64,000 nt of DNA from a virus (lineage: Duplodnaviria; Heunggongvirae; Uroviricota; Caudoviricetes): positions 1 through 64,000 of the IMG/VR virus record IMGVR_UViG_3300031555_003801; one strand, given 5' to 3'. The notes beneath the pieces are model-generated. The model was given only the letters and a program-made list of their open reading frames with translations. It had not been told where the DNA came from and made no database searches. Numbering within the stretch: position 1 is the first letter of the stretch; the number at the start of each line of letters is the position of its first letter. This document shows, in pieces, positions 2,980 through 20,989 of the stretch. The position numbers were made by a program, and so were the translations under genes.

Positions 2980-3597
2980 ATGGCATACATTTATAAAATT
3001 ACTAATTAGATTAATCAAAAATCTTATATTGGAAAAACTTCTAAAATAAATCCACAAAGAAGATGGATGGAACATAAAGCAGATAGTAATAATCCTAATA
3101 GAAATCATAGAGCTTTATATAAAGCTATGAATAAATATGGAATAGATAATTTTATTTTTGAAATTATTGAAGAAACTAATTTGCCAGAAGAACGAGAAAT
3201 ATATTATATACAATATTATAATACTTATCATAATGGTTATAATGAAACTCTCGGCGGAGATGGTGGTAAATATTTAGATTTACCAGAACAAGAAATTTGT
3301 AAATTCTATTTAAAAAATAGAAATTTAAAAGATACCGCTGAGTTTTTTAATCATGATCAATTAACTATTAAACAAGTATTATATAAATATAATATAGAAA
3401 TTATTTCTTCTTATGAAGTTTTAAAAGAAAAAACTTCTAAACCAGTTGCGAAATTAGATAAAAATACAGAAGAAATAATTGAAATTTATCCATCAGTTAT
3501 TGAAGCAGAAAGACAAAATTCATGTCATTCACATATAAAAGATGTTTGTCATGGAAAAAGAAAAACTGCTGGCGGATTTAAATGGAAATTTATATAA
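2980..3597 (+). CDS. GIY-YIG homing endonuclease, 1 in-frame TAG (3007)
   Basis: MAYIYKITN*INQKSYIGKT...RRWMEH (GIY-YIG motifs) continuing into the ORF-track frame 3067..3597. RBS AAGGAG at 2965. Lies inside the tRNA array. Confidence 0.7.
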
Positions 3598-3598
3598 T

Positions 3599-3674
3599 GG
3601 GATTATAGCTCAAAAGTGAAGAGCGATGGTCGAAAGATTGGAGGTTGTGAGTTCAAATCTCACTAATCCCACCA
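3599..3674 (+). tRNA. tRNA-like gene with non-pairing anticodon stem (possible pseudo-tRNA)
   Basis: Acceptor gggatta/taatccc is perfect. D arm gctc-aaaagtgaa-gagc. T arm gtgag-ttcaaat-ctcac. CCA present. The region atggtcgaaagattgga does not form an anticodon stem. Confidence 0.35.
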
Positions 3675-5043: not shown

Positions 5044-5100
5044 ACTCACTATGTAAAAGAACCTTCTCGTGGTGTGAGTTGATTTCGACAGATACTTTTA
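5044..5100 (+). repeat. Diverged copy 3 of the ~55-nt structured element: stem GTAAAAG/CTTTTAC around AACCTTCTCGTGGTGTGAGTTGATTTCGACAGATA
   Basis: Core conserved with copies at 2897 and 10812. The outer stem sequence is different but still complementary (covariation). Confidence 0.45.
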
Positions 5101-5706
5101 CAAAAAAATAAATGCTAAATAACTCAGTGCTAAACTGTATCTCGCAGATATGGCTGAGGTATGCGGAAAATGGTCGGCAGAAAACGAAGCAGGGATACCT
5201 GTTGATACTGGCCCGCTGGTTCTAAGGTGACGAAGTTCCAGAAGAGGAGAGAACTCCCAAACGAAACGCATAGCATTTCATATATCGCAAATAAAAGCAG
5301 TAAGCGAATGGGCGAGGCAATAGAAAGCTCTGTGAATAGCGGAGCCGAATCCAAGTTAGGGTTTAGCTGGTGACTGTATCAATCCTTGGAAATACCAACA
5401 ACTCGTTTGGCCGTGAAGCAGAGAAATCTGTGTATAACATTTGCGCGCAACGTCCGAGTAGGTCAAGGCTATATTGCAATTCAAATTTTTGAAAGTTCTT
5501 ATTTGTTGTAGAAGAATTAACAAGAAATTTACTGAATTGTGGCTGAAAGGTGTGGGTAATCAATCCCGCATAGGACATTGGCTTTTAAAGCTGGGTTAAA
5601 AAAGTCACTGGGGTAGCTCCCCTAGGCTCAGATTTAACTCCCTATTGGCTGAATATATTTGAAGATATGTGACGTAGAACGAAGGTTCATTTAGCATTTT
5701 TTTTAT

Positions 5707-5780
5707 GCGGTATTGGTGTAGAGGTAACATAAGAGCCTTCCAAGCTTGGGTCGCGGGTTCGATTCCCGCATACCGCTCCA
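5707..5780 (+). tRNA. tRNA-Gly (anticodon TCC)
   Basis: Acceptor gcggtat/ataccgc. Anticodon arm agagc-ctTCCaa-gcttg. T arm gcggg-ttcgatt-cccgc. CCA present. Confidence 0.65.
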
Positions 5781-6263: not shown

Positions 6264-6340
6264 ATAGTCTGCAAAACTAATGGTTGTTGGTTCGAGTCCA
6301 ACCTTGAGATTTTATCTCAAGTAGCTCAATTGGGAGAGCT
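6264..6340 (+). tRNA. Candidate circularly permuted tRNA-Cys (anticodon GCA): anticodon arm, T arm and acceptor 3' strand are followed by a 5-nt loop and then the acceptor 5' strand and D arm
   Basis: Anticodon arm atagt-ctGCAaa-actaa (6264-6280). T arm gttgg-ttcgagt-ccaac (6286-6302). Acceptor 3' cttgaga (6303-6309). Loop t+ttta. Acceptor 5' tctcaag (6315-6321) is the exact reverse complement. D arm gctc-aattggga-gagc (6324-6339). Leader ttctta (6255-6260) pairs with trailer taagaa (6344-6349), bringing positions 26/27 together. ACAGCAAA at 6239-6246. Confidence 0.5.
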
Positions 6341-6366
6341 TAATAAGAATATGTGTCTAGAATTAT

Positions 6367-7007: not shown

Positions 7008-7572
7008 GTCCCATTAGCTCAGTAGGCTAGAGCACGTGACTTTTTAGACTCATGTAGATTGACAATTACTCAAAGAGGTGAAAAAATATGTTGAGTAGTC
7101 ATTTTATAGGAGAAATTACAGAACAGCAAGTGGCAGTTGAATTCTTAAAATTAGGTATTTTAGTTTCGAAGCCATTAGTACAAAGTTCGAAGTATGATTT
7201 TATAGCGGATATAAATCATAAACTTTATAAAATTCAAGTAAAAACTGGAACTTATAAAGAAGATGCTTATTTAGAATTTGCTACAAGTACAAGTCATACA
7301 AATACTAAAGGAACATTAAATCTTTCTTATTCAGAAGATGATGTTGATTTCTTTGCTACAATGCATGAAGGACAATGTTATTTAGTTCCTTATCATCTTT
7401 GTGGTAAAAGAATCCAAAGAATAAGATTTGTTCCAACTAAAAATGGACAAACAAAAGGAATTTTGTTTGCGAAAGATTTTCATTTAGAGGATATAGTAAA
7501 AACTTTGTAATTGTCATTCTGAAGGACTAAAAAATCACGGTGTCCGCAGTTCGAGTCTGCGATGGGACACCA
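7008..7572 (+). tRNA. tRNA gene (probably tRNA-Lys TTT) split in the anticodon loop by a ~490-bp ORF-containing insertion (intron-like)
   Basis: 5' exon: acceptor gtcccat (7008-7014), D arm gctc-agtaggcta-gagc, anticodon-stem strand cgtga (7035-7039). 3' exon: tcacg (7535-7539, exact complement), variable gtgtc, T arm cgcag-ttcgagt-ctgcg, acceptor atgggac (exact complement) + a + CCA (7562-7572). The insertion's ends pair into an extended rod (tttttag/ctaaaaa and tgacaattac/gtaattgtca). Confidence 0.55.
7088..7510 (+). CDS. ORF inside the tRNA insertion: PD-(D/E)XK-like nuclease candidate (possible homing endonuclease)
   Basis: 140 aa. Motif YDFIADINHKLYKIQVKT resembles D...(E/Q)xK. RBS AAAGAGGTG upstream. 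A PD-(D/E)XK homing endonuclease in a tRNA-fMet group I intron (I-Ssp6803I) is a precedent. Confidence 0.45.
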   Translation: MLSSHFIGEITEQQVAVEFLKLGILVSKPLVQSSKYDFIADINHKLYKIQVKTGTYKEDAYLEFATSTSHTNTKGTLNLSYSEDDVDFFATMHEGQCYLVPYHLCGKRIQRIRFVPTKNGQTKGILFAKDFHLEDIVKTL

Positions 7573-7711: not shown

Positions 7712-7788
7712 GTCCCTGTAATCCAACAGGTAGAGATAGTGGACTTAAAATCCATCCAGTGTGAGTTCGAATCTCACCAGGGACACCA
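7712..7788 (+). tRNA. tRNA with anticodon TAA (Leu-type anticodon) but class I architecture (5-nt variable loop)
   Basis: Acceptor gtccctg/cagggac is perfect. Anticodon arm gtgga-ctTAAaa-tccat. T arm gtgag-ttcgaat-ctcac. Discriminator A. CCA present. Confidence 0.5.
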
Positions 7789-7793
7789 AATAT

Positions 7794-7870
7794 GTCCCAT
7801 TAGCCCAATTGGCAGAGGCGTCTGACTTAGGATCAGATCAGTGCAGGTTCGAATCCTGTGTGGGGCACCA
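7794..7870 (+). tRNA. tRNA with anticodon TAG (Leu CUN-type anticodon) but class I architecture
   Basis: Acceptor gtcccat/gtggggc (2 G-U). Anticodon arm tctga-ctTAGga-tcaga is perfect. T arm gcagg-ttcgaat-cctgt. CCA present. Confidence 0.55.
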
Positions 7871-7876
7871 TTTAAA

Positions 7877-7971
7877 AAGACGCTAGAATACAGCAATTAT
7901 TTTAGGTTAATAGAATTTTGTTGAAGAAGATTTTTAGATGGTTCGAATCCATCACAAGAACCTAGCGTCTT
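7877..7971 (+). repeat. Hairpin-flanked element 'g': AAGACGCTAG / CTAGCGTCTT (10 bp) with ACAGCAA; encloses an orphan tRNA 3' half (T arm gatgg-ttcgaat-ccatc + acaagaa)
   Basis: The inverted repeat, the motif and the T-arm-like segment are all visible in the sequence. No matching 5' half was found. Confidence 0.45.
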
Positions 7972-8098
7972 GTTTTGATTTATTCTGTTACTTAAATTGA
8001 GCGGATGTAGCCGAATTGGTATAGATACATGATTCTAGAGATTTGAATTATTTTACCTATAAATAATAATATTATTAGTTTAAAAGAATATAAATAAA

Positions 8099-8947
8099 AT
8101 GGAATTAATTGATTTTACAAAAGAGATAAATAATGCTTAGTTATTTGTAGGTTCTGGTAAAAAGAAAAAATTATTAATTAATTATAACAATGAATAGTAT
8201 ATAATTAAATTTGCTAAAAATATATGTACAAATAATCAAGGTATTATTACAAATTAGAGAGGCTTTTCAGAATATTTAGCTTGTCAAATTTATCAAAATG
8301 CAGAATTTTTTGTTTAGGAAACTTTATTAGGTTATTATAAAAATAAAAATAATATTTTAACTGCTTGTAAACTTGCAAATAATAAAATTACAGATTTTAG
8401 TTTTTTTATGGAAAAATATGATTATAAAGTAAGTAATAAATTAAATGATATTTTATTAGTTTGTAAATATATTAATATAGAAGAATACTTTTGGGATATG
8501 TTTATTATAGATGCTTTTATTGGTAATACAGATCGTAATACTGGTAATTGGGGATTATTTTATAATGAAAAATTAGATAAAATATTAAGCGTTCCTTTTA
8601 TTTTTGACTGTGAAAATAGTTTTTATCCCAATATGAATGATTATATTTTATAGAATTATTGTCAAAAAGAATTAAAAGAAATAGCTTATAATTATCCAGA
8701 ATCAAAAATAATTTATAATAATAAAAATATAAATTATTTTAATTTTATTTCTTCTTTAGAGAATGAAGATTGTAATGAAGCTTTAAAAAGAATTGTTCCT
8801 AAAATTGATATAGAAAAAATTATTTAGATTATAAATGATCTTCCACTTGAAAAAATATAGAAAAATTTTTTAATAACAATTCTTCAAAAAAGAAAAGAAT
8901 TATTAAATCTTGTTTTAATAAAACTTAATGAAAGAGAAAACCAATGA
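8099..8947 (+). CDS. HipA-like (HipA/CtkA kinase family, divergent catalytic motif) protein with 7 in-frame TAG codons
   Basis: VGSGKKKKL (P-loop-like) and FIIDAFIGNTDRNTGNWG (HipA C-terminal motif region, with D-R-N in place of D-x-H). Same frame as ORF-track fragment 8408..8653. Overlaps the E1 start (ATGA). Confidence 0.5.
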
Positions 8948-9675
8948 TTAGATATAAAGAAAATATTGATGAATTTAATTTAACAGAAAAAATTCAAAAT
9001 CAATTATTAACAAAAAATATTGCAGTAATTGGTTGTGGCGGACAAGGTGGATATACTTTAGAATTTCTTATTCGATTAGGAATTAAATCTATTATTTTTT
9101 GGGATGGAGATTATTTTGAAGAATCTAATCTTAATAGACAAATAGGCTGTTTAATTCCAACGTTACAAAAAAACAAAGCTTTATCTATGAAAGAAAGGCT
9201 TCAACAAATTAATCCAGAAGTAGAATTAATTTGTTGTGATTGGTATTTTGGAGATAAAGAAGATGATAAAGAGAAACTATCTAAAGTAGATTTTATTTTT
9301 GATGCTGCAGATTGTAATTATAATATTTTTAAATTAAGAACAATTTTAAGAGAAGTCATTATTGAATATAATATTCCTATTATTCGTTTCCCTATAAATA
9401 TATTAGGAGGTTATGTTCATATTGAAACTATGAAAGATTTAAGCCATTTTGATTTTATTACGCATAGATTAATTTATCAAAATAAAAATGAAAAAATTTT
9501 TCCAGAAGCAGTAAGTCAACCCGCTTATAAATGTGCAATTATTGCGGGCGAAGCTGTAAATCAAATGGTTCAATATTTTTCTAATTGTAGATATGCGGCT
9601 ATTGATACAACTTTAAATATTGATCTTTATCATCATAAATATGTTGAAGAAGATAGATTTGGAATTATTCCATAA
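8944..9675 (+). CDS. ThiF/MoeB/E1-like adenylyltransferase
   Basis: Rossmann motif IAVIGCGGQGGY. Signature FEESNLNRQ. 243 aa. Confidence 0.75.
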   Translation: MIRYKENIDEFNLTEKIQNQLLTKNIAVIGCGGQGGYTLEFLIRLGIKSIIFWDGDYFEESNLNRQIGCLIPTLQKNKALSMKERLQQINPEVELICCDWYFGDKEDDKEKLSKVDFIFDAADCNYNIFKLRTILREVIIEYNIPIIRFPINILGGYVHIETMKDLSHFDFITHRLIYQNKNEKIFPEAVSQPAYKCAIIAGEAVNQMVQYFSNCRYAAIDTTLNIDLYHHKYVEEDRFGIIP

Positions 9676-9678
9676 TTT

Positions 9679-9759
9679 GGGGACATAGCTCAGTTGGTGA
9701 GAGCGCAGAGCTTATACCTCTGGAATCTGTCGAAGGTTCAAGTCCTTCTGTCCCTACCA
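9679..9759 (+). tRNA. tRNA-Ile (anticodon TAT), 9-nt variable loop
   Basis: Acceptor ggggaca/tgtccct. D arm gctc-agttggtga-gagc. Anticodon arm cagag-ctTATac-ctctg. T arm gaagg-ttcaagt-ccttc. CCA present. Confidence 0.55.
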
Positions 9760-9766
9760 TTTTTAT

Positions 9767-9839
9767 TAGACACAAACAGCAAAATATTTTATGTCAAGCA
9801 AGGAACTTTTAATTCTTATAATAGCTAATAAAGTGTCTA
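9767..9839 (+). repeat. Hairpin-flanked element 'e': TAGACAC / GTGTCTA with ACAGCAAA (9776-9783)
   Basis: Inverted repeat enclosing ~57 nt with no tRNA. Lies between tRNA-Ile(TAT) and tRNA-Ile(GAT). Confidence 0.5.
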
Positions 9840-9846
9840 GAAAATA

Positions 9847-9923
9847 TTGAGAAGTAGCTCAGATGGTTAGAGCGCAGGTCTGATAAACCTGAGGTCGTGA
9901 GTTCAATTCTCACCTTCTCAACC
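9847..9923 (+). tRNA. tRNA-Ile (anticodon GAT), second copy
   Basis: Acceptor tgagaag/cttctca is perfect. D arm gctc-agatggtta-gagc. Anticodon arm caggt-ctGATaa-acctg. T arm gtgag-ttcaatt-ctcac. CCA present. Confidence 0.75.
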
Positions 9924-9932
9924 ATATTAATA

Positions 9933-10009
9933 TCTGGGTATAGCTCAGTTTGGCAGAGCGCCTGATTTGGGTTCAGGAGGCCGCAAGTTCGAATCTTGCT
10001 ACTCAGACC
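9933..10009 (+). tRNA. tRNA-Pro (anticodon TGG), canonical copy
   Basis: Acceptor ctgggta/tactcag. D arm gctc-agtttggca-gagc. Anticodon arm cctga-ttTGGgt-tcagg. T arm gcaag-ttcgaat-cttgc. CCA present. Confidence 0.75.
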
Positions 10010-10325
10010 AGTCCACCGTTTATGTTTTCCTTTCCTACTTTTGGAACATAAGAATAAGGTGGAGAAAGTAGGGCCGCTTAACCGGTTTATATTTATTAGT
10101 AGGCTGCAGAGCCATGTGTATATAGTATTTTTAAATCTCGCAAAAGTCTCACGATATGTTAAGATATCGCGCTGCTGTAATATGTGAATAATGTGAGTAC
10201 GCAATTTTATAAATGAGTATCGGCCTTGGTGTGGATGTTGATGGAGAGGCGACACGGAGCTCTACTTCGTATCTTTGGTGTCAGAGGTTAATTGTCTAAA
10301 ATCGAGAAAATTTATAAAATTATGT

Positions 10326-10420
10326 GGAGGCGTACCGAAGTGGCTATAACGGCGCAGACTTGAAATCTGTTGTGTCAGCTAGTACCTGACGCGGGGGTTC
10401 AAATCCTCCCGCCTCCGCCA
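10326..10420 (+). tRNA. tRNA-Ser (anticodon TGA), class II
   Basis: Acceptor ggaggcg/cgcctcc is perfect. Anticodon arm gcaga-ctTGAaa-tctgt. Long variable arm. T arm ggggg-ttcaaat-cctcc. CCA present. Confidence 0.75.
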
Positions 10421-10463
10421 ATAACAATGAAGAGTTAAAGGCCTGTAAGGACTTTAACTATTA

Positions 10464-10813
10464 CGGGGCTGAAAATGGTTTCGACAGGGTTGTGAAAAAT
10501 TTTAAATCCGCAGGTGTGATTTACCTTACAAATCAAACTTAAATATAAACGCAAAACCTTATAGATTAGCTGCCTAATTAATTGGTAGGCCTAAACGACA
10601 TGCTTGTTGTTCAGCTAAATGTCTGCGGCTCGAGGAATAGAACAATCACCCCAAAGTTTCTTAATTCTTTTTCAAAAATTAAGTGGTGGATACGATGTTT
10701 GTAAAGTGTCTTTACAAAACCCTGAGTTGGTTATCTCTAAAATAACCTATTGCGTAAGTATGATTTAAAATTAGTAACAGTTTTGGACGCGAGTTCGACT
10801 CTCGCCAGCTCCA
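10464..10813 (+). ncRNA. ssrA: tmRNA (ssrA-like transfer-messenger RNA)
   Basis: 5' end GGGGCTGAAAATGGTTTCGACAGGG (tmRNA tRNA-like domain). 3' end ggacgcgag-ttcgact-ctcgc-cagctcc-a (T arm + acceptor pairing with GGGGCTG). Internal tag-like reading frame GCA AAA CCT TAT AGA TTA GCT GCC TAA (…AKPYRLAA*) ending in the typical LAA + TAA. Confidence 0.65.
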
Positions 10814-10866
10814 GGCATCAAGAGATAAACCTTCACGTGGTGATGCTGATTTCGACAGATTATCTC
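10812..10866 (+). repeat. Copy 2 of the ~55-nt structured element (immediately 3' of the tmRNA)
   Basis: catcaagagataaaccttcacgtggtgatGctgatttcgacagattatctcaaaaa. One substitution relative to copy 1. Confidence 0.5.
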
Positions 10867-10898
10867 AAAAATTGTTCTCATTTTCTTTATTTCTATTA

Positions 10899-11052
10899 AG
10901 ACTCAATACAGCAAAATTATAAAACTTGTTTAGGCAATATATAAACTCTACAGAAAATGTGCTGGTGACACGCTTTCACTGTTGTTATTATTTGATAGTA
11001 AGAAAAACAGGGATAATAACGCTAATAAAAACTGTTAAATTCTTTTGAGTCT
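10899..11052 (+). repeat. Hairpin-flanked element 'f': AGACTCAA / TTGAGTCT enclosing ~140 nt, with ACAGCAAA at 10908-10915
   Basis: 8-bp inverted repeat. The insert has no ORF. The suppressor tRNA follows directly. Confidence 0.45.
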
Positions 11053-11061
11053 AGTATTAAA

Positions 11062-11151
11062 GCTCCGTAGTCTAATGGTAAAACGCCGGACTCTAAATCC
11101 GTTATACTCTCTGAAAGGGTAATCTGGGTTCGAATCCCAGCGGGGCCGCCA
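11062..11151 (+). tRNA. Amber suppressor tRNA (anticodon CTA, reads UAG), class II with long variable arm
   Basis: Anticodon arm (c)cgga-ctCTAaa-tccg(t) with U33 and A37. Variable stem tactct/agggta. T arm ctggg-ttcgaat-cccag. Acceptor agctccg/cggggcc (1 A-C at 1-72) + g + CCA. The D arm is irregular. Confidence 0.6.
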
Positions 11152-11160
11152 ATTTTTAAT

Positions 11161-11193
11161 AGCCAGTTTATATTTTTATAAACTGGCTTTTTG
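11161..11193 (+). terminator. Rho-independent terminator closing the tRNA array
   Basis: agccagtttata-ttttt-ataaactggct followed by tttt. Confidence 0.7.
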
Positions 11194-11201
11194 TTATTTA
11201 T

Positions 11202-11230
11202 TTGAAAAAAATTAAAAAATATGATATAAT
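11202..11230 (+). promoter_or_regulatory. sigma70-like promoter TTGAAA-N17-TATAAT
   Basis: ttgaaa 11202-11207, tataat 11225-11230 (tgaTATAAT). Confidence 0.6.
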
Positions 11231-11264
11231 AAACTATGATAAAAAATAAAAAAGGATAAAATAT

Positions 11265-12230
11265 ATGGAATTAATTGACTTTACGAAAGCAATAAATAAT
11301 GCTTAGTTATTTAAACCTACTGGTAACAATAAAAAAAAATTAAAAATTATTTATAATAATGAAGAATATATAATAAAAACTTCAAAATATACAATTGAAC
11401 AAGATAAAGAAAATAAATATAAAATGATTGAATTGTATAATACAATATCGGAATATTTAGGTTGTAAAATTTATGATAGTTTAAATATACCTGCACAAAA
11501 AACTTTATTAGGATATTATTAGTATAAAAATAAAAAACAAATGATAATTGCTTGTAAAAATTTTAATATTGATGATAGTTTTCTTCCTTTTGGTATATTC
11601 TTTAATAAAGAACGACAACAAGATAATAATAAATTGCAATCTTTAGAAATAAAAAATATTATAAAAAAAATTGAAGAACAAAATATTTATGATTCTCAAA
11701 AAATAAAAAAACGTTTTTGGGATATGTTTATTATTGATGCTTTTATTGATAATCCCGATAGAACTTCTGGAAACTGGGGTTTTATAAAAGATAAAAAAAC
11801 AAATACAATCATAAATTTTTGTCCAATTTTTGATTGTGAATAGAACATATTTTTAGAAATACTATTAAAAAATAAAAAACAATTATTAAATAATTAGAAT
11901 AAAATAAATTTTTTAGCTATATCGCCTTTTAAAAAATCTTATTTAATTTATGATAATAAAGTTATAAATTATTTTAATTTTATTTCCTCTTTAGAAAATG
12001 AAGATTGTAATGAAGCTTTAAAAAGAATTGTTCCTAAAATTGATATGGAAAAAATTATTTAGATTATAAATGATCTTCCACTTGAAGAATTCCAAAAAAA
12101 TAATTTAATAATAGTATTAAAAAAAAGAAAAGAATTATTATTAGATTTTCCTTTATTTCTCTTACAAAATATAGATAAAAGAGAAAAATACGAAAAAAAA
12201 ATAGAAAGGATAATATATGATAAATTATAA
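11265..12230 (+). CDS. HipA-like paralog with 5 in-frame TAG codons
   Basis: MELIDFTKAINNA*... FIIDAFIDNPDRTSGNWG. Same frame as ORF-track fragment 11541..11843. Its C-terminal ~125 bp is a near-exact direct repeat of the 3' end of 8099..8947. Stop TAA at 12228-12230 overlaps the ycaO start. Confidence 0.5.
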
Positions 12231-14007
12231 AAATCATTATAAAGAACGAAAACCAGAGGAAACAATAAAAATTATAGAAAACTTTTTTTTAAATCTCAAT
12301 ATGAAAATTAAAAGAAATGAAGTTATGATTAGTGAAATAAATACTTATTCAATACAAATAATATTATTTGATAAAAATGATTTTTTAATTTTATACGCTA
12401 ATGGTAAAGGTGAAACAGAAGAATTTGCAATTGCCTCTGCTTATGGCGAATTATATGAACGTTTCTGTAATATGAGATTTATTATGAAAGATGGTATTGC
12501 TCAAAATTTATTTTTACAAAAAAGAAAACAAAAATATAATTATTATTATCATCCAGAAGAAAAAGAATTTTCTTTAATAGAATTAATTAATGCCGATCAA
12601 AATTTTCATAATTTTTTCTTAGGAGATTTTTCTGAAAAAGATTCTGATATTATTAATTTTTATAATACACTTTTTAATAATAAATTTATTGCTGCGCCTT
12701 ATCAAGATTTATTAGATTCAAATAAACAATATTTTTATAACCCATATTTAATGACAGTGTTAAGAGGATCTGGCGGAATGGCTGCTGGAAATACATTAGA
12801 AGAAGCTTTAAATCAAGGCATTTCAGAACTTTACGAACATTATATTACAGATAAATTTCGTTATTTAAAAAAAGATTTTGATTTTCATTTTATAGATATT
12901 TCAACTATTAAAAACCAAAAATTAAAAGAAAAGATAAAATTATTAACAGATAATGAAAACTATGAATATTATTTAATTGATTTTTCTTATAATTTTAATG
13001 TACCTGTTTTATTATCTATTTTAATTGATAAAACTTTACAAAGATTTTTTATTAATTTTGGTTCTTTTCCTATTTTTGATATTGCTTTAGAAAGAACATT
13101 AACAGAATTATATCAAGGAGTTGTTTCTTTTAAAGAAGAAGAACAATCAAATAATATTATTGTTCCTTATAAAAGTGGAGTAACTATTATAGAAGCTTTA
13201 GACGCTACAGCAAATGTCACTAATTCTCTTTGTTTAAATGAAAGTTTTTTATTAAGTGAAAAAAAATTTTATTCCCCTAATTCAAAAATATTTTTATTTA
13301 ATCAGGATAAAAATTATTCAAATGAAGATATATTAAATTATTATAAAAAATTATCTTCTTATTTAAATATTAATTTTTGTTATTTAGATGTATCTCAATC
13401 TTCTGAAATGCATGCTATACAAATTTATAGTATAAATTTACCTCATTTCTCGTTACCTTTGGAAGCAAAAAAAATGCTTTACAAAAAACAACAATTAAAT
13501 GTTTATAAATTATTATCATATTTTATTCAGTTAGAAAATAAATGGCTAAATAATCATATATGGGATAATTTATTATGGGAAAAAATAATAATTTTATATA
13601 ATCAATTTACTATTGAAGATATTTTATTGTTTAATATTAGTGCCTCTATATTTTGTTTTAATTTTAGTAAAACTAATAATCTTTTATCATTAATTGAACA
13701 ATTTATAAAAATGGATTCAAATATTTATATGATTGAAGAACAAATTATTGCTATGTCTAATAAATCAATTCTTTCAGAAGATATTAAAAAATTCTTAACT
13801 CAATATAGGTATATTGTTAATAATGATTATCTTCCAAGTGAAAAAACTAAAATATTAAAAACTTTAATACCAGAATTTTCACAAGATGAAACATTATTTA
13901 AAAATATTATTACTCCAGAATATTTCTTACAAGTAATAATGGAAAAATTATATGAATATTATCATAGTGAAAAATATTCTGATTATCTTGATGCTTTAGT
14001 TGGATAA
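12217..14007 (+). CDS. YcaO-domain protein
   Basis: ANGKGETEEFAIASAYGELYERF matches the YcaO ATP-binding/cyclodehydratase signature. 596 aa. No TAG codons. Confidence 0.7.
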   Translation: MINYKNHYKERKPEETIKIIENFFLNLNMKIKRNEVMISEINTYSIQIILFDKNDFLILYANGKGETEEFAIASAYGELYERFCNMRFIMKDGIAQNLFLQKRKQKYNYYYHPEEKEFSLIELINADQNFHNFFLGDFSEKDSDIINFYNTLFNNKFIAAPYQDLLDSNKQYFYNPYLMTVLRGSGGMAAGNTLEEALNQGISELYEHYITDKFRYLKKDFDFHFIDISTIKNQKLKEKIKLLTDNENYEYYLIDFSYNFNVPVLLSILIDKTLQRFFINFGSFPIFDIALERTLTELYQGVVSFKEEEQSNNIIVPYKSGVTIIEALDATANVTNSLCLNESFLLSEKKFYSPNSKIFLFNQDKNYSNEDILNYYKKLSSYLNINFCYLDVSQSSEMHAIQIYSINLPHFSLPLEAKKMLYKKQQLNVYKLLSYFIQLENKWLNNHIWDNLLWEKIIILYNQFTIEDILLFNISASIFCFNFSKTNNLLSLIEQFIKMDSNIYMIEEQIIAMSNKSILSEDIKKFLTQYRYIVNNDYLPSEKTKILKTLIPEFSQDETLFKNIITPEYFLQVIMEKLYEYYHSEKYSDYLDALVG

Positions 14008-14017
14008 AATAAAATAA

Positions 14018-14047
14018 AAACGAGATTATTAAAAATAATCTCGTTTT
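14018..14047 (+). terminator. Rho-independent terminator
   Basis: aaacgagattatt-aaaaa-taatctcgttt + T-run. Confidence 0.7.
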
Positions 14048-14058
14048 ATATTTTTTAT

Positions 14059-14087
14059 TTGAAAATTTTCAAAAAAAATGTTATAAT
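14059..14087 (+). promoter_or_regulatory. sigma70-like promoter TTGAAA-N17-TATAAT
   Basis: ttgaaa 14059-14064, tataat 14082-14087 (tgtTATAAT). Confidence 0.6.
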
Positions 14088-14153: not shown

Positions 14154-15710
14154 ATGAATAAGTTTTTAAATGGATTAACTGATGCAACTAACTTCACTTA
14201 CACTGAAAATGGTGCTATTACCCATAAAACTACTAAGTCTGCTCTGTTAGATATGTTCGCACTTGGTGGAGCATATAGAACTAGAAGTGACGCAGAAGTA
14301 ATCACCTTATTTAAGAACGCATATGAGGAAAATCCTGTTTATGCGTTAAAGTGCCTGTTCTATCTGCGCGACGTGCGTGGCGGACAGGGTGAAAGAAGAT
14401 TTTTCAAAACTGCAATGAAGTGGTTTGCTAATGCTGATGTAGAAGCAGCAAGAAGAAATTTCAAGCATATTCCAGAGTTTGGTAGATGGGATGATTTATA
14501 TCTTTTCATTAATACGCCTCTTGAAAATGAAATGTTCCAGTTTATGAAGGAACAGTTAGCACTCGATATGCAGTGCAAAACACCTTCTCTGTTAGCAAAG
14601 TGGTTAAAGTCTGAAAATACATCTTCTATGGAATCCAGATATCTGGCTAAGAAGACTCGTCAGTATTTTGGCATGACCGCAAAGCAGTATAGAAAGACAT
14701 TATCTATCCTCCGTGAAAGAATTAATGTTCTTGAAAGATTAATGTCTGCAGGTAAGTGGGATGAAATCGAGTTCGATAAGATTCCTTCTAAGGCAGGTTT
14801 AATTTATAAGAATGCTTTTGCTAGACACGATATCGAAAGAATGAAGACTGAAAAGGCTGTAGTATCTTATGCGGATTTCGCTAAGGATGTAACTACAACT
14901 GTAAATGCTAAGGCATTATATCCATATGAAGTAGTAGCTAAGGCTATTGATTTAATGGGATATAATGGTGGTTGGTTCCGTAGCACTCATGATGTTCCAT
15001 TAGATAATACTGATAGACTTATGATTAATAAATATTGGAATAATCTCGCTGATTATATCCAGGGTGCTAATTTTAATGGAATTGCAGTGGTAGATACTTC
15101 TGGTTCTATGACTGGTTCTTTTGCTAGTGCACCAATTAATGTAGCTGTTTCTCTTGGCATGTATTGTGCTGAAAAAAATAATGGTCCATTCAAAGATCAC
15201 TTCATTACATTTGAATCTAATCCTCATTTAATTAAGGTTGAAGGCGTAGACTTTTGCGAAAAGGTTTATAATATTACTGGCGCAGACTGGGGTGGTTCTA
15301 CAAATATTGAAGCAGTGTTTGACTTATTATTAGATACTGCTATCAGAAATAATTGTTCTCAGGATGAAATTCCACAGAATGTAATTGTTATTTCTGATAT
15401 GGAGTTTAACTCTTGTGTAACTTTTAATAGCTTACTTGCAAGAAGATATTATAATGAACCTATGTTTAATACTGAAACTTTATTCGAAACCATGGAACGC
15501 AAATGGAATAGAGCAGGATATCAGATGCCTGCAATTACATTCTGGAATGTTCAGGCAAGACAGAATAATATTCCAATGAAGACTGAAGGTAGAGTAAATT
15601 ATGTATCTGGTATGTCTCCAGTAATCTATGAACAGGTTATGAAAGGTTTAAGTGCTTACGATCTGATGATGGATAAGTTAGATAATGAAAGATATAGCGT
15701 AATTTGCTAA
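14154..15710 (+). CDS. vWA (MIDAS) domain protein with large N-terminal helical domain (Ro60/TROVE-like architecture possible)
   Basis: MIDAS motif VVDTSGSMTG. 518 aa. Clearly higher GC and different codon usage than flanking phage genes. Confidence 0.55.
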   Translation: MNKFLNGLTDATNFTYTENGAITHKTTKSALLDMFALGGAYRTRSDAEVITLFKNAYEENPVYALKCLFYLRDVRGGQGERRFFKTAMKWFANADVEAARRNFKHIPEFGRWDDLYLFINTPLENEMFQFMKEQLALDMQCKTPSLLAKWLKSENTSSMESRYLAKKTRQYFGMTAKQYRKTLSILRERINVLERLMSAGKWDEIEFDKIPSKAGLIYKNAFARHDIERMKTEKAVVSYADFAKDVTTTVNAKALYPYEVVAKAIDLMGYNGGWFRSTHDVPLDNTDRLMINKYWNNLADYIQGANFNGIAVVDTSGSMTGSFASAPINVAVSLGMYCAEKNNGPFKDHFITFESNPHLIKVEGVDFCEKVYNITGADWGGSTNIEAVFDLLLDTAIRNNCSQDEIPQNVIVISDMEFNSCVTFNSLLARRYYNEPMFNTETLFETMERKWNRAGYQMPAITFWNVQARQNNIPMKTEGRVNYVSGMSPVIYEQVMKGLSAYDLMMDKLDNERYSVIC

Positions 15711-15947: not shown

Positions 15948-16751
15948 TTGTTTTATAAGAAAGGATTTTTAATGAAATATTTTATTGATTTTGAAGCCAA
16001 TAGTCCGACGAATGAAATCATTGAAATAGGTTGCGTTTCTGAAAAAAATGATTGTTTTAAAATGTATGTTAAACCAACTACACCTATTGACCCATTTATT
16101 ACGGGATTAACGCATATTACAAATAAAATGGTAGAAGATTCTCCTTTAATTGATGAAGCAATTATGATTTTTTATAATTGGCTTATCAATACGCAGGAAC
16201 ATTTTTCTTGGAAAGATACTACTTTTTATTGCTATGGAAATGCGGATCATTCATTTATTCAGGCTTCAGCACAAACTTGCGAAACAACTGATTCTTATAT
16301 GATTCTTGCGGCTATGGCTATGTCTTTGAAAGATTTTACCAAGAAAGTAAATCATTTCTTTAAAGATAGTATTTCTTTAATCCAGGCATTAAATTATTTT
16401 AAAACCTCGGAAACAGCTTGGGAGCAGTGTCATGATGCTCTTGAGGATGCGCTAGCTTTAAAAGAATTATATAAAGTTTTACCAAAAAAATATTCATTAC
16501 CTTGTTCTCCATTTGTTATTAAAACAGAAATGGGTGTTAGAAGAAATAAAAAAGGTTATGGATATACTGATTATATTAGTTTAACAGAAGCTACTGAATG
16601 TGTTGTAAAAGAAATATTAACAACATCACCAAATTCTAATGTTAAATCTGAAAATATTAGAAAAAGAATTATTCATGCTATTAATAAGAAAAGTTCTTAT
16701 ATGGGATATAAATGGAAATATGTAAAGATTGAGAAAGGGGATGAAGAATAA
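15948..16751 (+). CDS. DEDDh-family 3'-5' exonuclease (DnaQ/RNase T-like)
   Basis: Exo I motif FIDFEANSP..EIIEIG. Exo III motif HDALEDALAL. The true start is probably the internal Met at MKYFIDFE. Confidence 0.65.
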   Translation: MFYKKGFLMKYFIDFEANSPTNEIIEIGCVSEKNDCFKMYVKPTTPIDPFITGLTHITNKMVEDSPLIDEAIMIFYNWLINTQEHFSWKDTTFYCYGNADHSFIQASAQTCETTDSYMILAAMAMSLKDFTKKVNHFFKDSISLIQALNYFKTSETAWEQCHDALEDALALKELYKVLPKKYSLPCSPFVIKTEMGVRRNKKGYGYTDYISLTEATECVVKEILTTSPNSNVKSENIRKRIIHAINKKSSYMGYKWKYVKIEKGDEE

Positions 16752-18169
16752 TGTATTAGGCATATGTAACTAAATTAAAAAATGTGCGGCCGCACCCTAA
16801 TGCTGATAGAATGCTTTTAGCAGACTGTTTCGGCAATACTGTTTGTGTAGGCCTTGACGCGCAAGAGGAAGATGTAATTCTCTATTTTCCAACAGATGGA
16901 CAATTATCTAAAGAATATGCGGAAATCAATAATCTTATAAGAATCAAGAATGAAGATGGAACATATTCCGGTGGATATTTAGACCCAGATAAAAGAAACA
17001 TCAAAGCAATTAAATTAAGAGGTGAAAAATCTGATGGTTTAGTAATGCCACTAGAATCCCTTTCTTCTTTTGGAGATATTTCTACTTTAAATATTGGAAA
17101 TACAATTAATGTCTTTAATGGACATGAAATTTGTAAAAAGTATATTCCAAGAGAAAATCCAATGAAGGTGCGCGCTGGCGGTAATAAGACCCGCAAGACC
17201 AAGCGCCTAATTGCTCCTTTATTCAAAGAACATGCTGATACTGAACAATTAGCATATAATCTTGATGCTTTCAAAGCGGGAGATGAAATTGAAATCACAT
17301 TAAAGATGCATGGAACTTCTCAAAGAACTGCTTACTTACCAAAATTAATTGGTTATAAAAGATCTATTTTAGATAGACTCTTAAAGAGAGAAGGAACTCC
17401 AATCTATGATTGGGGCTATGTGTCTGGAACTCGTAGAACTGTTGTAGATGATTTTGAAAATAGAACAACTTCTTTCTATGGTAGTGATGCATTTAGAGAA
17501 CCGCATGCAAAAATGTTTGAAGGAAAGCTTTATAAGGGTGAAACTGTTTATTATGAAGTTGTTGGTTTTACCGATAATGGAACTCCTATTATGGGTTCTT
17601 GTGATAATAGAAAAACTCAAGATAAAGAGTTTATTAAGAAATATGGTGAAGTGACTACTTTCTCTTATGGTTGTGACTGTGCGGAACAAGCATGGAGAGA
17701 AAATAGAGGACAAGATCCAGACAAACCTCAGTCTGACATTTATGTATATCGAATGACAATGACTAATGAAGATGGTTATGTAATGGAATTAACTCCTGAT
17801 TATATGAGATATAGATGCGAGCAGATGGGTGTAAAGACAGTGCCTGTTATGTGGAAAGGATACATTCCTTATACAGTAGATGACATTGATTCTACTATTC
17901 CTGGTCACAGAATTATACTTAGAGAAGGGGAAAATGCTGGAGACTGGGTTAAGAGTGTAGCAGAACAGTATTACGATGGACCTGACCCAATTGGTAGAAC
18001 CCATGTGCGGGAAGGTGTAGTTGTAAGAATTATAAATAGACCAAAATTTGCAGCATATAAGCATAAAAACTTTAGCTTCAAAGTTCTCGAAGGAATTGTC
18101 AAAGCGGATGCATTAATGCCAGATATGGAAGAAGCACAGGAGACTATTGATGAAAGTTCAGAGATTTGA
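16751..18169 (+). CDS. ATP-dependent RNA ligase (Rnl2/Rnl5-like, nucleotidyltransferase motif I KMHGTS) with N-terminal OB-like domain; codon 3 is TAG
   Basis: ATG TAT TAG at 16751-16759 joins onto ORF-track frame 16784..18169. LKMHGTSQR resembles the KxHG(T/S)N motif I of the Rnl2 family. GC-richer than the surroundings. Confidence 0.55.
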
Positions 18170-19102: not shown

Positions 19103-20566
19103 ATGAAGAAATTTTTAACATTTGTTTTATGTTTCTGTATTATGTTTACATTCAGTGTCGGAGCTTCATTTGCGGCAGTGGTATCCACTACCTACAAGAG
19201 CGAAGTCGTTAAGAACGCTGTAGAAAGTGTATGCACTGTCGATTTAACAAAGTATTCCAAGAGTATGGAAGAAGTAATCGCAAATGAAATTGCGGAACTG
19301 CGCACTTTTGCTGCTGGTAAGGAATCTCTTGATGCAGAGGTTTTAAAAGCAATTGATGAATTAAAGGATTTTCTTGCTGATAATACTCTTGCGGCTCAGG
19401 AAGCTGAATTAAAGGAAATTAAGACTGATGCTATTATTAAGTTTGAAAATAAGGTTGATGCTTATGTAGCTTCTAAGGAATGGACAGAAGATCAGATTAA
19501 GCTTGGTGAAAAGACTGAATTTGAAGCTGATGTAAAGGCTTTTACTGATTGGTTTATTGGTAAGAGATTCTATCATCCTGGTAAGAATGTAATTAATAGT
19601 GGACATGAAACTGGTTCTACTGAATTAACATTTGCTTCTGCAAAGGCTGATATTGAATATTTAAATGGTAAAGTAATTGATGATGCTTGGTTCGCTCAGA
19701 TTGTTGGCATGCTTGATGAAGTAAAGAATGTTAAGTATGAAGCAGATAAGTATTATGCTGATCTTGCTCATTATAGTTCTGATACTTACTCTGCTGGAGC
19801 AATCGCAGCAGCTAAGGCTGAAACTTATGCTGGTATTGAACTTTTAGATATTACTGATGTTACAAAGTTTGTAGAACCAAAGACTATCGAACAGGAAAAG
19901 GCTGATAAGACAGAAGCTGATGCTAAGGCATTAGTAGATGCTAAGAAGGCTGCTATCTTCGCTATCACAGCTGGCGACTATTATGTAGGAAACTGGAGTG
20001 GTGAAGCTAAGGCATATGTTGCTGATATTCAGTCTAAATATACTGTATATATCAATGCTGCTACTACAATCGCAAAAGTTGATGCTTATAAGTATGAAGC
20101 AATGAGACTTATGGGCGGATATCAATCTGACGTACAGATTAAAGATGAAAACGATAAGTTAATTGGCGATTTAAACGATACTAAGGAAGAATTAGATAAG
20201 ACTAAAGAAGAATTAGAAGCTATTAAGAAAGAAATGGCTTTTGATAAAGCTATGGATAATTTATCTGTAAAGGCTAGAAGTGCAAAGACTTCTAAAGGTT
20301 ATATTAAAATAACTGCTGTGGCTGATACAGAAGAATTAGAAGAACTTGGTTATACTGTAAAGTATAAGTTCTATCGTGCTACTTCAAAGAATGGCGAATA
20401 TGTTGCTAAATTCACAAGCAAAGGAACATATACTAACACTGGCGGAACAAAAGGTAAGATGTATTACTACAGAGTAAAAGCTCTTGTTTATGATGCTGAT
20501 GGTCAGTTAGTAGCAGAAACAAAGATTAAAGATTGTAAGTATGCTTGCAGAAAGTTTGGTAAGTAA
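19103..20566 (+). CDS. Secreted protein with N-terminal signal peptide (hypothetical)
   Basis: MKKFLTFVLCFCIMFTFSVGASFAAV signal peptide. 487 aa. Markedly higher GC than the phage backbone. Strong RBS AAAGGAG. Confidence 0.5.
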   Translation: MKKFLTFVLCFCIMFTFSVGASFAAVVSTTYKSEVVKNAVESVCTVDLTKYSKSMEEVIANEIAELRTFAAGKESLDAEVLKAIDELKDFLADNTLAAQEAELKEIKTDAIIKFENKVDAYVASKEWTEDQIKLGEKTEFEADVKAFTDWFIGKRFYHPGKNVINSGHETGSTELTFASAKADIEYLNGKVIDDAWFAQIVGMLDEVKNVKYEADKYYADLAHYSSDTYSAGAIAAAKAETYAGIELLDITDVTKFVEPKTIEQEKADKTEADAKALVDAKKAAIFAITAGDYYVGNWSGEAKAYVADIQSKYTVYINAATTIAKVDAYKYEAMRLMGGYQSDVQIKDENDKLIGDLNDTKEELDKTKEELEAIKKEMAFDKAMDNLSVKARSAKTSKGYIKITAVADTEELEELGYTVKYKFYRATSKNGEYVAKFTSKGTYTNTGGTKGKMYYYRVKALVYDADGQLVAETKIKDCKYACRKFGK

Positions 20567-20577
20567 TTAATTTAGAA

Positions 20578-20610
20578 TGGGAGAGTTTAATTACTCTCCC
20601 TATTTTTTTT
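20578..20610 (+). terminator. Rho-independent terminator
   Basis: gggagagtttaattactctccc + tattttttttt. Confidence 0.7.
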
Positions 20611-20670
20611 AAGGAGAATTAATAGGCCAAATATATTTAATTTTGATAATTTCATTTTTATATAATAAAA

Positions 20671-20910
20671 ATGAAAGGAAAAATGATTATGGATATTTTT
20701 ACCTTAGCATATATGAAAAATATGATGAAAGGCTTACATACTGAAGATTGTGAAGGTATTCCTGGTAAATCTGCTTATGAAATTGCAGTTGAAAATGGAT
20801 TTGAAGGAACTGAACAAGATTGGTTAAATGCTATTTATATGAATCCTGAAGACCAATGGATTACATTAGATGATATATTGGCAGCTAAACAAAAAAGCGA
20901 GAACAATTAA
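20671..20910 (+). CDS. Hypothetical protein
   Basis: ORF with RBS AAAGGAAA. A terminator follows at 20896-20926. Confidence 0.35.
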   Translation: MKGKMIMDIFTLAYMKNMMKGLHTEDCEGIPGKSAYEIAVENGFEGTEQDWLNAIYMNPEDQWITLDDILAAKQKSENN

Positions 20911-20989
20911 GTTCTCGCTTTTTTGTTTTATATAAAAAAATATGATATAATATAATATAAAATAAAAATGAGTAAAAGGAGAAGAATAT

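Follow-up and report, generated by a model that had tools for sequence, protein, structure and literature searches.

The first 64,000 nucleotides of the tailed-phage record IMGVR_UViG_3300031555_003801 (IMG/VR), which come from a large gut phage and are hereafter called the window, hold two genes for kinase-like proteins of the CtkA family, and each of these genes overlaps the start of a gene for an ATP-using modification enzyme. Paralogue c1 (8099-8947, + strand) is followed by a ThiF/MoeB-type E1 adenylyltransferase (8944-9675, +), and paralogue c2 (11265-12230, +) is followed by an Escherichia coli-type YcaO (12217-14007, +). Both kinase-like proteins have altered catalytic motifs, the same pairing is found in related phages, and the ends of the two paralogues evolve in concert within a genome. 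We propose, tentatively, that YcaO and E1 take part in a protein-maturation pathway of the phage and that the kinase-fold proteins serve them as dedicated, probably non-canonical partners.

Family, integrity and motifs of the kinase-like genes

Paralogue c1 encodes 282 amino acids (aa) with seven in-frame TAG codons, and c2 encodes 321 aa with five. The standard code splits this region into fragments, and reading TAG as a sense codon yields long open reading frames (ORFs); at this base composition, 282 and 321 codons without TAA or TGA would arise by chance with probabilities of ~1e-12 and ~1e-14. In an alignment of the CtkA family TAG codons fall in the invariant Gln columns Q73 and Q254, and in the E1 gene of a relative TAG stands at the conserved Q of QPAYKC and of NQMVQ. 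The reading of TAG as Gln (genetic code 15) in this phage is therefore supported by alignment. TAG makes up 12 of the 29 Gln codons in the two kinase-like genes, compared to 0 of 35 in E1 and YcaO together (Fisher p=1.6e-5). A preliminary description of this DNA, made from sequence alone, had stated that the HipA-like genes are recoded and that E1 and YcaO are not; this holds in the window, where both enzyme genes are free of TAG, but fails in relatives, whose E1 and YcaO genes hold 1-8 TAGs. Most genes of the window contain 0-1 TAGs, and besides the kinase-like genes only those at 30301-31560 and 42210-43160 are strongly TAG-rich, with seven TAGs each.

A profile built from c1, c2 and their homologues, of which 917 were found, matches Helicobacter pylori CtkA (PDB 3AKJ) with E=1e-104; taken singly, c1 and c2 score 19.1 and 16.1 bits, under the Pfam HipA_C gathering score of 30.5. 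Their best PADLOC matches are to PDC-M03A, a candidate defence component (E=7e-19 and 8e-17). The closest bacterial homologues are ~40% identical, ~300 aa long and come from the Firmicutes Lachnospiraceae and Pseudoramibacter. In six of six genomic places inspected, these homologues have an HTH_26 gene 4 nt upstream in a hipBA-like layout, and its helix-turn-helix (HTH) product matched no PADLOC model. Among the genes adjacent to c1 and c2, no antitoxin-like gene of the HTH, HipS-like or HIRAN type was found: c1 is preceded by a tRNA and a spacer of 229 nt, and c2 by a suppressor tRNA, a terminator and a promoter. The spacer upstream of c1 (7871-8098) holds tRNA-like debris that reaches only 12.6 bits with the Rfam tRNA model. 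This debris includes a T-arm, GGTTCGAATCC (7939-7949), within a 10-bp long-range inverted repeat (7877-7886 with 7961-7970), and a 5'-half-like stretch (8000-8046) with CTA in an anticodon-loop-like position.

The bacterial homologues and CtkA share the Gly-rich loop GANGxK, the catalytic loop D-R-H-N-G-N-W and the motif DCG, and the His of D-R-H is kept in 116 of the 120 nearest homologues, which are the bacterial neighbours. This His is replaced in every phage copy. The window proteins read GNTDRNTGNW (c1, D-R-N) and DNPDRTSGNW (c2, D-R-T); the copies in the related phage loci described below and in further phage-type sequences read DRG (three times: P0009 of locus L024, P0351 and P0352), DFV (P0042, in the context DFVDEN) or DRNN (L025 and L026), so that N, T, G or V stands in place of His. 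The catalytic-loop Asp and Asn are retained in the phage copies. The Gly-rich loop keeps G-x-G in c1 (VGSGKKK), is reduced to PTGNNKK in c2 and has lost Gly altogether in L024 (TLNKKKK) and P0351 (IDKNNKK); it is eroded in most phage copies, the YcaO-linked type being the most affected. All phage copies have DCE in place of DCG. The ATP-binding Lys (K37), E58, D145, N150 and the Mg-binding Asp (D170) are invariant across all six phage-type sequences, which share 59 invariant columns. By these motifs the phage proteins make up a subfamily of their own, which departs from the canonical form at two of the four Hip motifs. The preliminary description of two HipA/CtkA-like paralogues with an altered catalytic motif is borne out by the match to 3AKJ and by the replacement of the His.

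Operon structure

The c1 stop codon and the E1 start codon share ATGA (8944-8947), and the YcaO ATG (12217) sits 14 nt inside c2, confirming the stop/start overlaps first described for both gene pairs. YcaO is preceded by its own AAGGA Shine-Dalgarno sequence. A weak promoter-like site lies upstream of c1 (8043-8070, +; TTGAAT-16-AATAAT, 9/12, a consensus match only). tRNA-Ile(UAU) begins 3 nt past E1, and the c1-E1 unit runs straight into a block of RNA genes (9679-11151, +; ARAGORN and Rfam) composed of tRNA-Ile(UAU), tRNA-Ile(GAU), tRNA-Pro, tRNA-Ser, a transfer-messenger RNA (tmRNA; 10465-10813) and the suppressor tRNA(CUA) (11061-11151). With this block between them, the E1 and YcaO genes are 2.5 kb apart. 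The suppressor tRNA is followed by an intrinsic terminator-like hairpin (11161-11188, +; 12-bp stem and T run) and then by the strong promoter-like site of the c2-YcaO operon (11202-11230, +; TTGAAA-17-TATAAT with extended TG, 11/12); an equivalent extended -10 site stands upstream of the kinase-like gene in two relatives, L024 and L120. A bidirectional terminator-like hairpin with a 14-bp stem (14017-14047, +) ends the c2-YcaO operon, and a second promoter-like site (14059-14087, TTGAAA-17-TATAAT) precedes the next gene.

Duplication and gene conversion

The near-perfect direct repeat reported at the 3' ends of the two kinase-like genes is present at 8728-8851 and 11963-12086 (both +; 121 of 124 nt identical), with the second range in the preliminary description off by 2-6 nt, and the two blocks differ by only 2 synonymous changes. 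A block at the 5' end is also similar (8099-8147 and 11265-11313, 44/49 identical), and the middle of c1 and c2 is ~55-60% identical. Across genomes, middle-region identity is 53% between c1-type and 48% between c2-type proteins, compared to 38-42% for cross pairs, and the c2 type carries its own shared indels. The C-terminal parts of the paralogues show no difference within the L024/L025 genome, and in the window they agree to ~97% over 40 residues. Because another lineage has the same two paralogue types and the ends have been homogenised in each genome, the duplication appears from these comparisons to be old, with both paralogues kept and their ends evolving in concert. Of the two origins first suggested for the repeat, 3' gene conversion stands, and a recent duplication is unlikely and is rejected here in favour of old duplication with gene conversion, as both paralogue types occur in a second lineage. 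In L024 the duplicated unit consists of the promoter and the entire ORF as far as its stop. A database protein from an ENA contig of 2903 bp (P0001) is an exact chimera of the N-terminal ~255 residues of c2 (from 11265) and the C-terminus of c1 (to 8947), which arose either by natural recombination across the 124-nt repeat or as an assembly join there.

The E1 and YcaO enzymes

The E1 (243 aa, no TAG) matches Pfam ThiF at 6e-29 and retains all ATP/Mg motifs of the ThiF/MoeB class (GCGGQGG, SNLNRQ and the Mg-binding Asp); it is the canonical ThiF-type enzyme, intact in its catalytic motifs and overlapping c1, that had been described. It has no CxxC zinc site, no rhodanese domain and no peptide-clamp domain. 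Its structure model, with a predicted local distance difference test (pLDDT) score of 95.9, had among its best structural matches AclA (24.7, second in rank), UBA5 (24.6), PaaA (24.2) and MccB (22.4). The fold is nearest to MoeB, AclA and PaaA, enzymes that adenylate protein or peptide C-termini, and not to the tRNA-specific TcdA. A TcdA-like tRNA role was considered and ruled out on this fold ranking, in which TcdA was not closest. The E1 belongs to a tight, phage-only clade of ~90 sequences, and all eight clade contexts inspected were TAG-recoded phage contigs.

The YcaO (596 aa, no TAG) scores 104.5 bits with the Pfam YcaO model against a threshold of 25.7 (1e-29) and matches PDB 4Q84 with E=6e-19. 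Its ATP- and Mg-binding residues S74, E78, E81, E204, E207, R293 and E297 are invariant in 40 homologues. In Foldseek comparisons the AlphaFold2 model (pLDDT 87.9) aligned to E. coli YcaO (4Q86) with a template modelling (TM) score of 0.66 over ~580 residues, including the C-terminal helical domain; the YcaOs LynD and TruD of thiazole/oxazole-modified microcin (TOMM) systems aligned to the core only, with TM ~0.4, and archaeal YcaOs likewise matched only the core. Identity to E. coli YcaO is 16-17% over the structural alignment and 27% in a local tblastn match to an E. coli ycaO gene. E. coli YcaO is an accessory factor for methylthiolation of ribosomal protein S12 by RimO, and no RimO-type methylthiotransferase was detected near the window YcaO, which scores 111.6 with NCBIfam YcaO_for_S12 (cut-off 700) and 43.8 with the TOMM/SagD model TIGR03604 (cut-off 219). 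A classical TOMM azoline cyclodehydratase was rejected: the YcaO is not of the SagD type, the E1 is not a degenerate docking partner and lies 2.5 kb away, and there is no adjacent precursor. The preliminary description had taken E1 and YcaO for the core of azoline/thioamide machinery; this is only partly supported. A classical TOMM cyclodehydratase would call for other subtypes of both components, and a role in peptide or protein modification is plausible.

Recurrence of the pairing in related phages

The synteny comparison with related phages that had been called for was carried out, and the kinase-like/E1/YcaO pairing recurs in four loci. In L024, L025 and L026 a kinase-like gene precedes the E1 gene (65% identical), an RNA block follows, and a second kinase-like gene precedes YcaO (55% identical). 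The RNA block of L024 consists of tRNA-Met, tRNA-Ile(UAU), tRNA-Ile, tRNA-Pro, tRNA-Ser, tmRNA, a GIY-YIG gene and tRNA(CUA), and the order of the RNA block is the same in L024, L025, L026 and L007. L025 and L026, from other samples, carry another allele of the kinase-like gene (DRNN) upstream of that E1. In L120 (G+C 17%) a promoter, a kinase-like gene (P0042) and YcaO (45% identical) follow one another. The layout with two paralogues is thus found in a second phage lineage and the order kinase-like gene-YcaO in a third. The kinase-like and YcaO genes of L024 and L120 do not overlap, and YcaO has TAGs in both. The central third of the kinase-like genes is hypervariable: L025 and L024 are 97.8% identical over 3.6 kb, and their differences are concentrated in that part.

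Searches of public data returned few further relatives. In IMG/VR, a YcaO query and two kinase-like alignments found no phage-type relative and only bacterial or prophage-type D-R-H copies with an HTH-like gene upstream. Among GenBank phages there was no DNA match, YcaO matched only the annotated ycaO gene of an Escherichia phage record (27% identity), and the kinase-like protein matched one unannotated 8-kb fragment. A metagenome scan with the phage-type alignment, run as tblastn under the standard code and so probably penalising recoded copies, gave 80 loci that were nearly all bacterial D-R-H copies, and in none of them did an orthologue of E1 or YcaO lie nearby; E1 was matched only in L076 and L081, weakly (32% over 104 aa) and at a distance of several kb. 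In the literature searched, no paper linked YcaO with HipA or CtkA, and a survey of stop-codon recoding (bioRxiv 10.1101/2021.08.26.457843) does not mention E1, YcaO or kinase-like genes. The pairing of kinase-like genes with E1 and YcaO is undescribed in the papers and annotated phage genomes searched, and both phage families are missing from those genomes.

A candidate peptide-maturation cluster

A cluster of three genes at 20990-24028 (+) may be associated with the E1 and YcaO. Two of its genes encode proteins resembling radical S-adenosylmethionine (rSAM)/SPASM peptide maturases: rSAM1 (20990-22177, +) matches the NCBIfam PapB family with 150.6 bits (E=6e-44) and rSAM2 (22174-23373, +) with 72.4 bits, both below the equivalog cut-off of 340. 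The third gene (23342-24028, +) encodes a Cys/Asn-rich protein of 228 aa, the candidate substrate, which has a repetitive C-terminus (CGYNCSCNYNCGYNCNYNCCNHNC...GGAK) and ends in ...CGYNCSCNYNCGYNCNYNCCNHNCNKNETSDAGGAK. In relative L123, whose flanking genes are 70-86% identical to those of the window, the counterpart of this protein ends in ...GGVK and differs in the number of YNC repeats. L123 also places the E1 orthologue between a DUF2828 gene and a block of a 487-aa gene, two rSAM genes and the Cys-rich gene, which is orthologous to window positions 19103-24028.

Three more distant clusters point in the same direction. L037 and L035 contain E1 and YcaO within one cluster of ~10 genes together with two rSAM/SPASM-like enzymes, an Fe-S protein and a protein of 151-164 aa, and that of L035 also has glycosyltransferases; L028 has E1 in the same type of cluster, with YcaO not on that 8-kb contig. 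The 151-164-aa tail proteins (L028 3286-3780; L037 7652-8107; L035 2104-2583) are encoded directly upstream of the two rSAM/SPASM-like genes. Their N-terminal part is conserved, their C-terminal tail is hypervariable, rich in Cys, Ser, Asn and Phe and carries N-x-S/T-like repeats (e.g. NSSFNSSFNSSF...), and all end in an aromatic residue (...TRNF or ...TDYF). Among the other proteins of these clusters, Pfam recognised only a generic 4Fe-4S domain and radical SAM, and an initial impression that one 287-aa protein was U32-like was unsupported by any match and was dropped.

Base composition groups the same genes. The G+C content at third codon positions (GC3) is ~0.06-0.09 in E1, YcaO, both kinase-like genes, both rSAM genes, the Cys-rich gene and two GT8-like genes, and 0.12-0.28 in most other window genes. 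It is alike (~0.08) for E1 and rSAM1 in L123 and for YcaO in L007, where the neighbouring DUF2828 gene has 0.27-0.34. E1 and YcaO form a phage-specific pair. The clusters in relatives and the common GC3 support a putative joint role in protein or peptide maturation, and neighbourhood and base composition would tie 20990-24028 to that pair. By its gene content, 20990-24028 looks like a phage ranthipeptide-like cluster for a 'RiPP-protein', after the ribosomally synthesized and post-translationally modified peptides (RiPPs). The two GT8-like genes mentioned above are the overlapping genes at 134-943 and 936-1712, which have a G+C content of 15-16%, a GC3 of 0.06-0.08 and three TAGs each, and which, by eye, we take to be glycosyltransferase-8-like. 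GT8 and GT2 genes flank YcaO in relatives L010 and L035.

Source phage and RNA genes of the window

The window belongs to a phage genome of at least 188 kb and low G+C (contig Ga0307249_10001222), which is not the megaphage first supposed; the contig is also present at NCBI within a metagenome-assembled genome labelled 'Firmicutes bacterium'. Large-phage-type replication genes were seen in the ORF table of the window. ARAGORN identified 21 tRNA genes, the tmRNA and the tRNA with anticodon CUA in the 64 kb. The suppressor tRNA(CUA) is 91 nt long, with a Gln-like D-arm, a long variable arm, a G73 discriminator and an A1:C72 mismatch, and it is 100% identical between the window (11061-11151), L007 (1723-1813) and L024 (3905-3995), where the neighbouring proteins are only 42-65% identical. 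Two ARAGORN calls of tRNA-Leu (UAA, 7712-7788; UAG, 7794-7870) are 77 nt long and have no long variable arm, a feature that bacterial tRNA-Leu possesses. An extra tRNA at 3599-3671 scores 46.9 bits in Rfam and has no ARAGORN call.

A full-length ROOL RNA (5099-5707, +; Rfam RF03087, 337 bits against a gathering score of 99) lies inside the tRNA array, and a sub-threshold match to the Y RNA-like YrlA is found at 6264-6363 (35 bits against 69). A few kb from the latter are genes for a DUF2828/DUF7788 protein (14154-15710), a DEDD/RNase T-like exonuclease (15972-16751) and an RNA ligase (16751-18169). We take DUF2828 to be a Ro/TROVE-related von Willebrand factor A protein, and the YrlA-like match, DUF2828 protein, exonuclease and ligase may be a phage RNA quality-control or repair set of the Ro/Y-RNA type. 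The tRNA array also contains a GIY-YIG-like gene recognised by eye (2980-3597) and a PD-(D/E)XK (PDDEXK_5) endonuclease-like gene (7088-7510). A GIY-YIG gene called by Pfam occupies the same tRNA block in L024, and the GIY-YIG-like and PDDEXK_5 genes may be homing-type mobile genes.

A partner role for the kinase-like proteins and its alternatives

We infer the following model. A phage subfamily with the CtkA/HipA fold would have been recruited from bacterial toxin-antitoxin-type kinases to supply partner subunits, c1 being co-translated with a MoeB-like E1 that would adenylate a carboxylate and c2 with an E. coli-type YcaO that would use ATP to activate a backbone amide. E1, YcaO and the PapB-like rSAM/SPASM enzymes would cooperate in a single pathway for the maturation of a protein or peptide, with the Cys/Asn-rich protein at 23342-24028 as the best candidate substrate. 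The kinase-fold proteins could be pseudokinases that recruit the substrate or act allosterically, and would then correspond in function to the degenerate partners (E1-like, Ocin-ThiF and TfuA) of other YcaOs; another possibility is that they are atypical phosphotransferases priming Ser/Thr residues in the substrate. We rank the partner-subunit model first, as a tentative preference, because it is the only one that joins three facts: two paralogues stand immediately upstream of both members of an enzyme pair, the layout persists with paralogue-specific orthology, and the nucleotide ligands are retained while features of the catalytic loop and P-loop drift.

Several observations weigh against this model. 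Upstream of YcaO (42% identical) in L007, which shares with the window the tRNA block and a DUF2828 gene (~82% identical), are a methylase and a GmrSD/HNH gene and no kinase-like gene; in L123, DUF2828 stands directly upstream of E1, again with no kinase-like gene, and the distant clusters L028, L035 and L037 also have none. E1 and YcaO therefore occur in relatives without an adjacent kinase-like gene, and the partner is either not obligatory or encoded elsewhere. As about 20 of 132 representatives of the wider family naturally have D-R-N, loss of the His is not by itself proof of inactivity. The hypervariable central third would be at least as compatible with a conflict gene engaged in an arms race. 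Under code 15 the window has no small ORF (25-140 aa) ending in Gly-Gly that could encode a ThiS/MoaD-like or ubiquitin-like partner of the E1, and the ...GGAK end of the Cys-rich protein (...GGVK in L123) is at most a lead to an activatable C-terminus. No homology could be detected between the Cys-rich protein and the 151-164-aa tail proteins encoded in the distant clusters. Finally, no difference separates the two kinase-like copies of L024 over at least 952 nt, and as the contig starts within this repeat, copy 1 may be an assembly collapse; the presence of a kinase-like gene upstream of E1 is independently confirmed by L025 and L026.

Some of these points are shared with explanations in which the kinase-like proteins are directed at the host. 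It seems to us unlikely that they are active, atypical Ser/Thr kinases derived from CtkA/HipG-like toxins, which would phosphorylate a host target such as an aminoacyl-tRNA synthetase, as HipA and HipT do, with the TAGs delaying synthesis to late infection and the adjacency to E1 and YcaO reflecting shared transcription only. Such effectors would be expected to keep the ATP-binding Lys, the catalytic Asp and the Mg-binding Asn and Asp, which are invariant, and could use D-R-N, natural in the family. They would also be in keeping with the toxin-antitoxin-like bacterial homologues and their HTH gene 4 nt upstream, the position among tRNA, tmRNA and suppressor-tRNA genes, the hypervariable middle region and the lack of a kinase-like gene beside YcaO in L007 and E1 in L123; the short 'core-kinase' Hip families of HipA-homologous toxin-antitoxin modules are predicted to be active toxins (PMC8262856). 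Host-directed kinases leave unexplained, however, why two paralogues lie directly upstream of one enzyme pair and why the layout is found in three lineages, and they accord poorly with the loss of the Gly-rich loop in most c2 copies and with DFVDEN in P0042; a block of translation would moreover hurt that of the phage too. Erosion of two of the four canonical Hip motifs would fit decoys, catalytically compromised homologues of host CtkA/Hip abortive-infection kinases (PDC-M03) that titrate the trigger, antitoxin or substrate of the host toxin. The best PADLOC matches to PDC-M03A, the strain-level hypervariability with mosaic recombination and the filling of the slot upstream of YcaO in L007 by other conflict genes (methylase, GmrSD/HNH) are consistent with decoys, but TAG-rich genes could not be expressed before suppression and are a poor fit to early counter-defence, the conserved coupling to E1 and YcaO is unaccounted for, and PDC-M03 is only a candidate system; the upstream HTH protein of the bacterial homologues matched no PADLOC model. 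We consider this anti-defence role less likely still.

The surroundings of the genes raise two further explanations that concern the genetic code. HipA targets aminoacyl-tRNA synthetases, YcaO is linked to S12 and the E1-like TcdA acts on tRNA, and the block from E1 through the tRNAs, tmRNA and tRNA(CUA) to the kinase-like gene and YcaO might by analogy be a translation-remodelling module that enables TAG-to-Gln decoding in a standard-code host, acting on S12 at the decoding centre, on an aminoacyl-tRNA synthetase or amidotransferase, or on the tRNA itself. The conserved order of this block, the unusual suppressor tRNA (variable arm, G73, A1:C72) that stays 100% identical among phages whose proteins are 42-65% identical, the RNA-centred neighbourhood (ROOL RNA, Ro-like DUF2828 protein, RNA ligase), the TAG-free E1 and YcaO of the window and the recoding of all inspected contigs with this E1 or YcaO family would all be expected of such a module, and the survey of stop-codon recoding states that enzymes behind the code change were not identified for most recoded phages (bioRxiv 10.1101/2021.08.26.457843). 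If correct, it would address how recoded phages impose their own code on standard-code hosts. We nonetheless find it improbable: E1 and YcaO of relatives carry TAGs, the kinase-like genes themselves depend on suppression, the clusters of L028, L035 and L037 are free of tRNA genes and have peptide-type rSAM/SPASM enzymes, the E1 fold is nearer to MoeB and PaaA than to TcdA, and the YcaO reaches 111 bits of the 700 set for YcaO_for_S12. The skew of TAG codons toward the kinase-like genes (12/29 against 0/35), the stop/start overlaps and the L024 repeat unit of promoter and whole ORF to its stop would suit TAG-rich leader ORFs whose main role is to hold back coupled translation of the TAG-free E1 and YcaO before suppression sets in. 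Against this stand the strong protein-level conservation of a kinase fold of 280-320 aa and its invariant active-site ligands; moreover, YcaO has its own AAGGA Shine-Dalgarno sequence, and in L024 and L120 the genes do not overlap and YcaO has TAGs. A mainly regulatory role is likewise improbable. The possibility raised at the outset that the genes are non-functional, decayed duplicates could draw on the altered catalytic motif and the many 'stops' under the standard code. It was rejected, and we give it almost no credence, given the ORFs intact under code 15 against chances of 1e-12 to 1e-14, a TAG aligned to an invariant Gln, intact orthologues in three other lineages and the 59 columns invariant across the six phage-type sequences.

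Significance and comparison with known systems

If the partner-subunit model is true, the kinase-like proteins would be a third kind of YcaO partner, after E1-like/Ocin-ThiF and TfuA proteins, and would offer a first functional entry point to the long E. coli-type branch of YcaO, which is poorly understood. They would also be a clear example of a bacterial toxin-type kinase domesticated by a phage as a biosynthetic or regulatory subunit. More broadly, the data point to a multi-enzyme maturation system of E1, YcaO and two rSAM/SPASM enzymes, joined by glycosyltransferases in some relatives, which is widespread among TAG-recoded phages of the gut and rumen and essentially absent from annotated phage genomes.

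The phage kinase-like proteins resemble CtkA (3AKJ) and the short Hip families HipG, HipM, HipI and HipJ in fold, in their length of ~300 aa, in lacking the HipA N-subdomain and in their nucleotide and Mg ligands. They differ from the CtkA/Hip toxin-antitoxin modules in having no HTH or HipS-like gene, in the replaced His, the eroded Gly-rich loop and DCE, and in being encoded by a virulent-type large phage, with in-frame TAGs and coupled to E1 and YcaO. The E1 differs from MoeB/ThiF, MccB and PaaA in the absence of the zinc CxxC, rhodanese domain, peptide clamp and Gly-Gly partner ORF. For the YcaO, the E. coli enzyme (4Q84-4Q86) is the closest solved structure over the full length and has the same ATP-binding residues, but identity is low, the equivalog score is 111 against 700, and the setting is a phage.

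The window cluster at 20990-24028 is like the ranthipeptide/SCIFF (PapB) systems in having two PapB-like rSAM/SPASM genes beside a protein with a repetitive Cys/Asn-rich C-terminus, and in the co-clustering of E1 and/or YcaO in relatives; it differs in scores below the cut-offs and in a 'precursor' of 228 aa in place of a short peptide. Known YcaO partners are the E1-like C protein or Ocin-ThiF of TOMM cyclodehydratases, and TfuA for thioamidating YcaO. The phage arrangement departs from these systems in its Hip/CtkA-fold partner, for which the literature searched held no precedent, in its long E. coli-type YcaO, which is neither of the TOMM nor of the archaeal kind, and in an intact E1 with a kinase-like partner of its own. 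It shares with them an ATP-dependent YcaO that is co-encoded with a nucleotide-binding-fold partner with degenerate motifs, and an association with RiPP-type tailoring enzymes.

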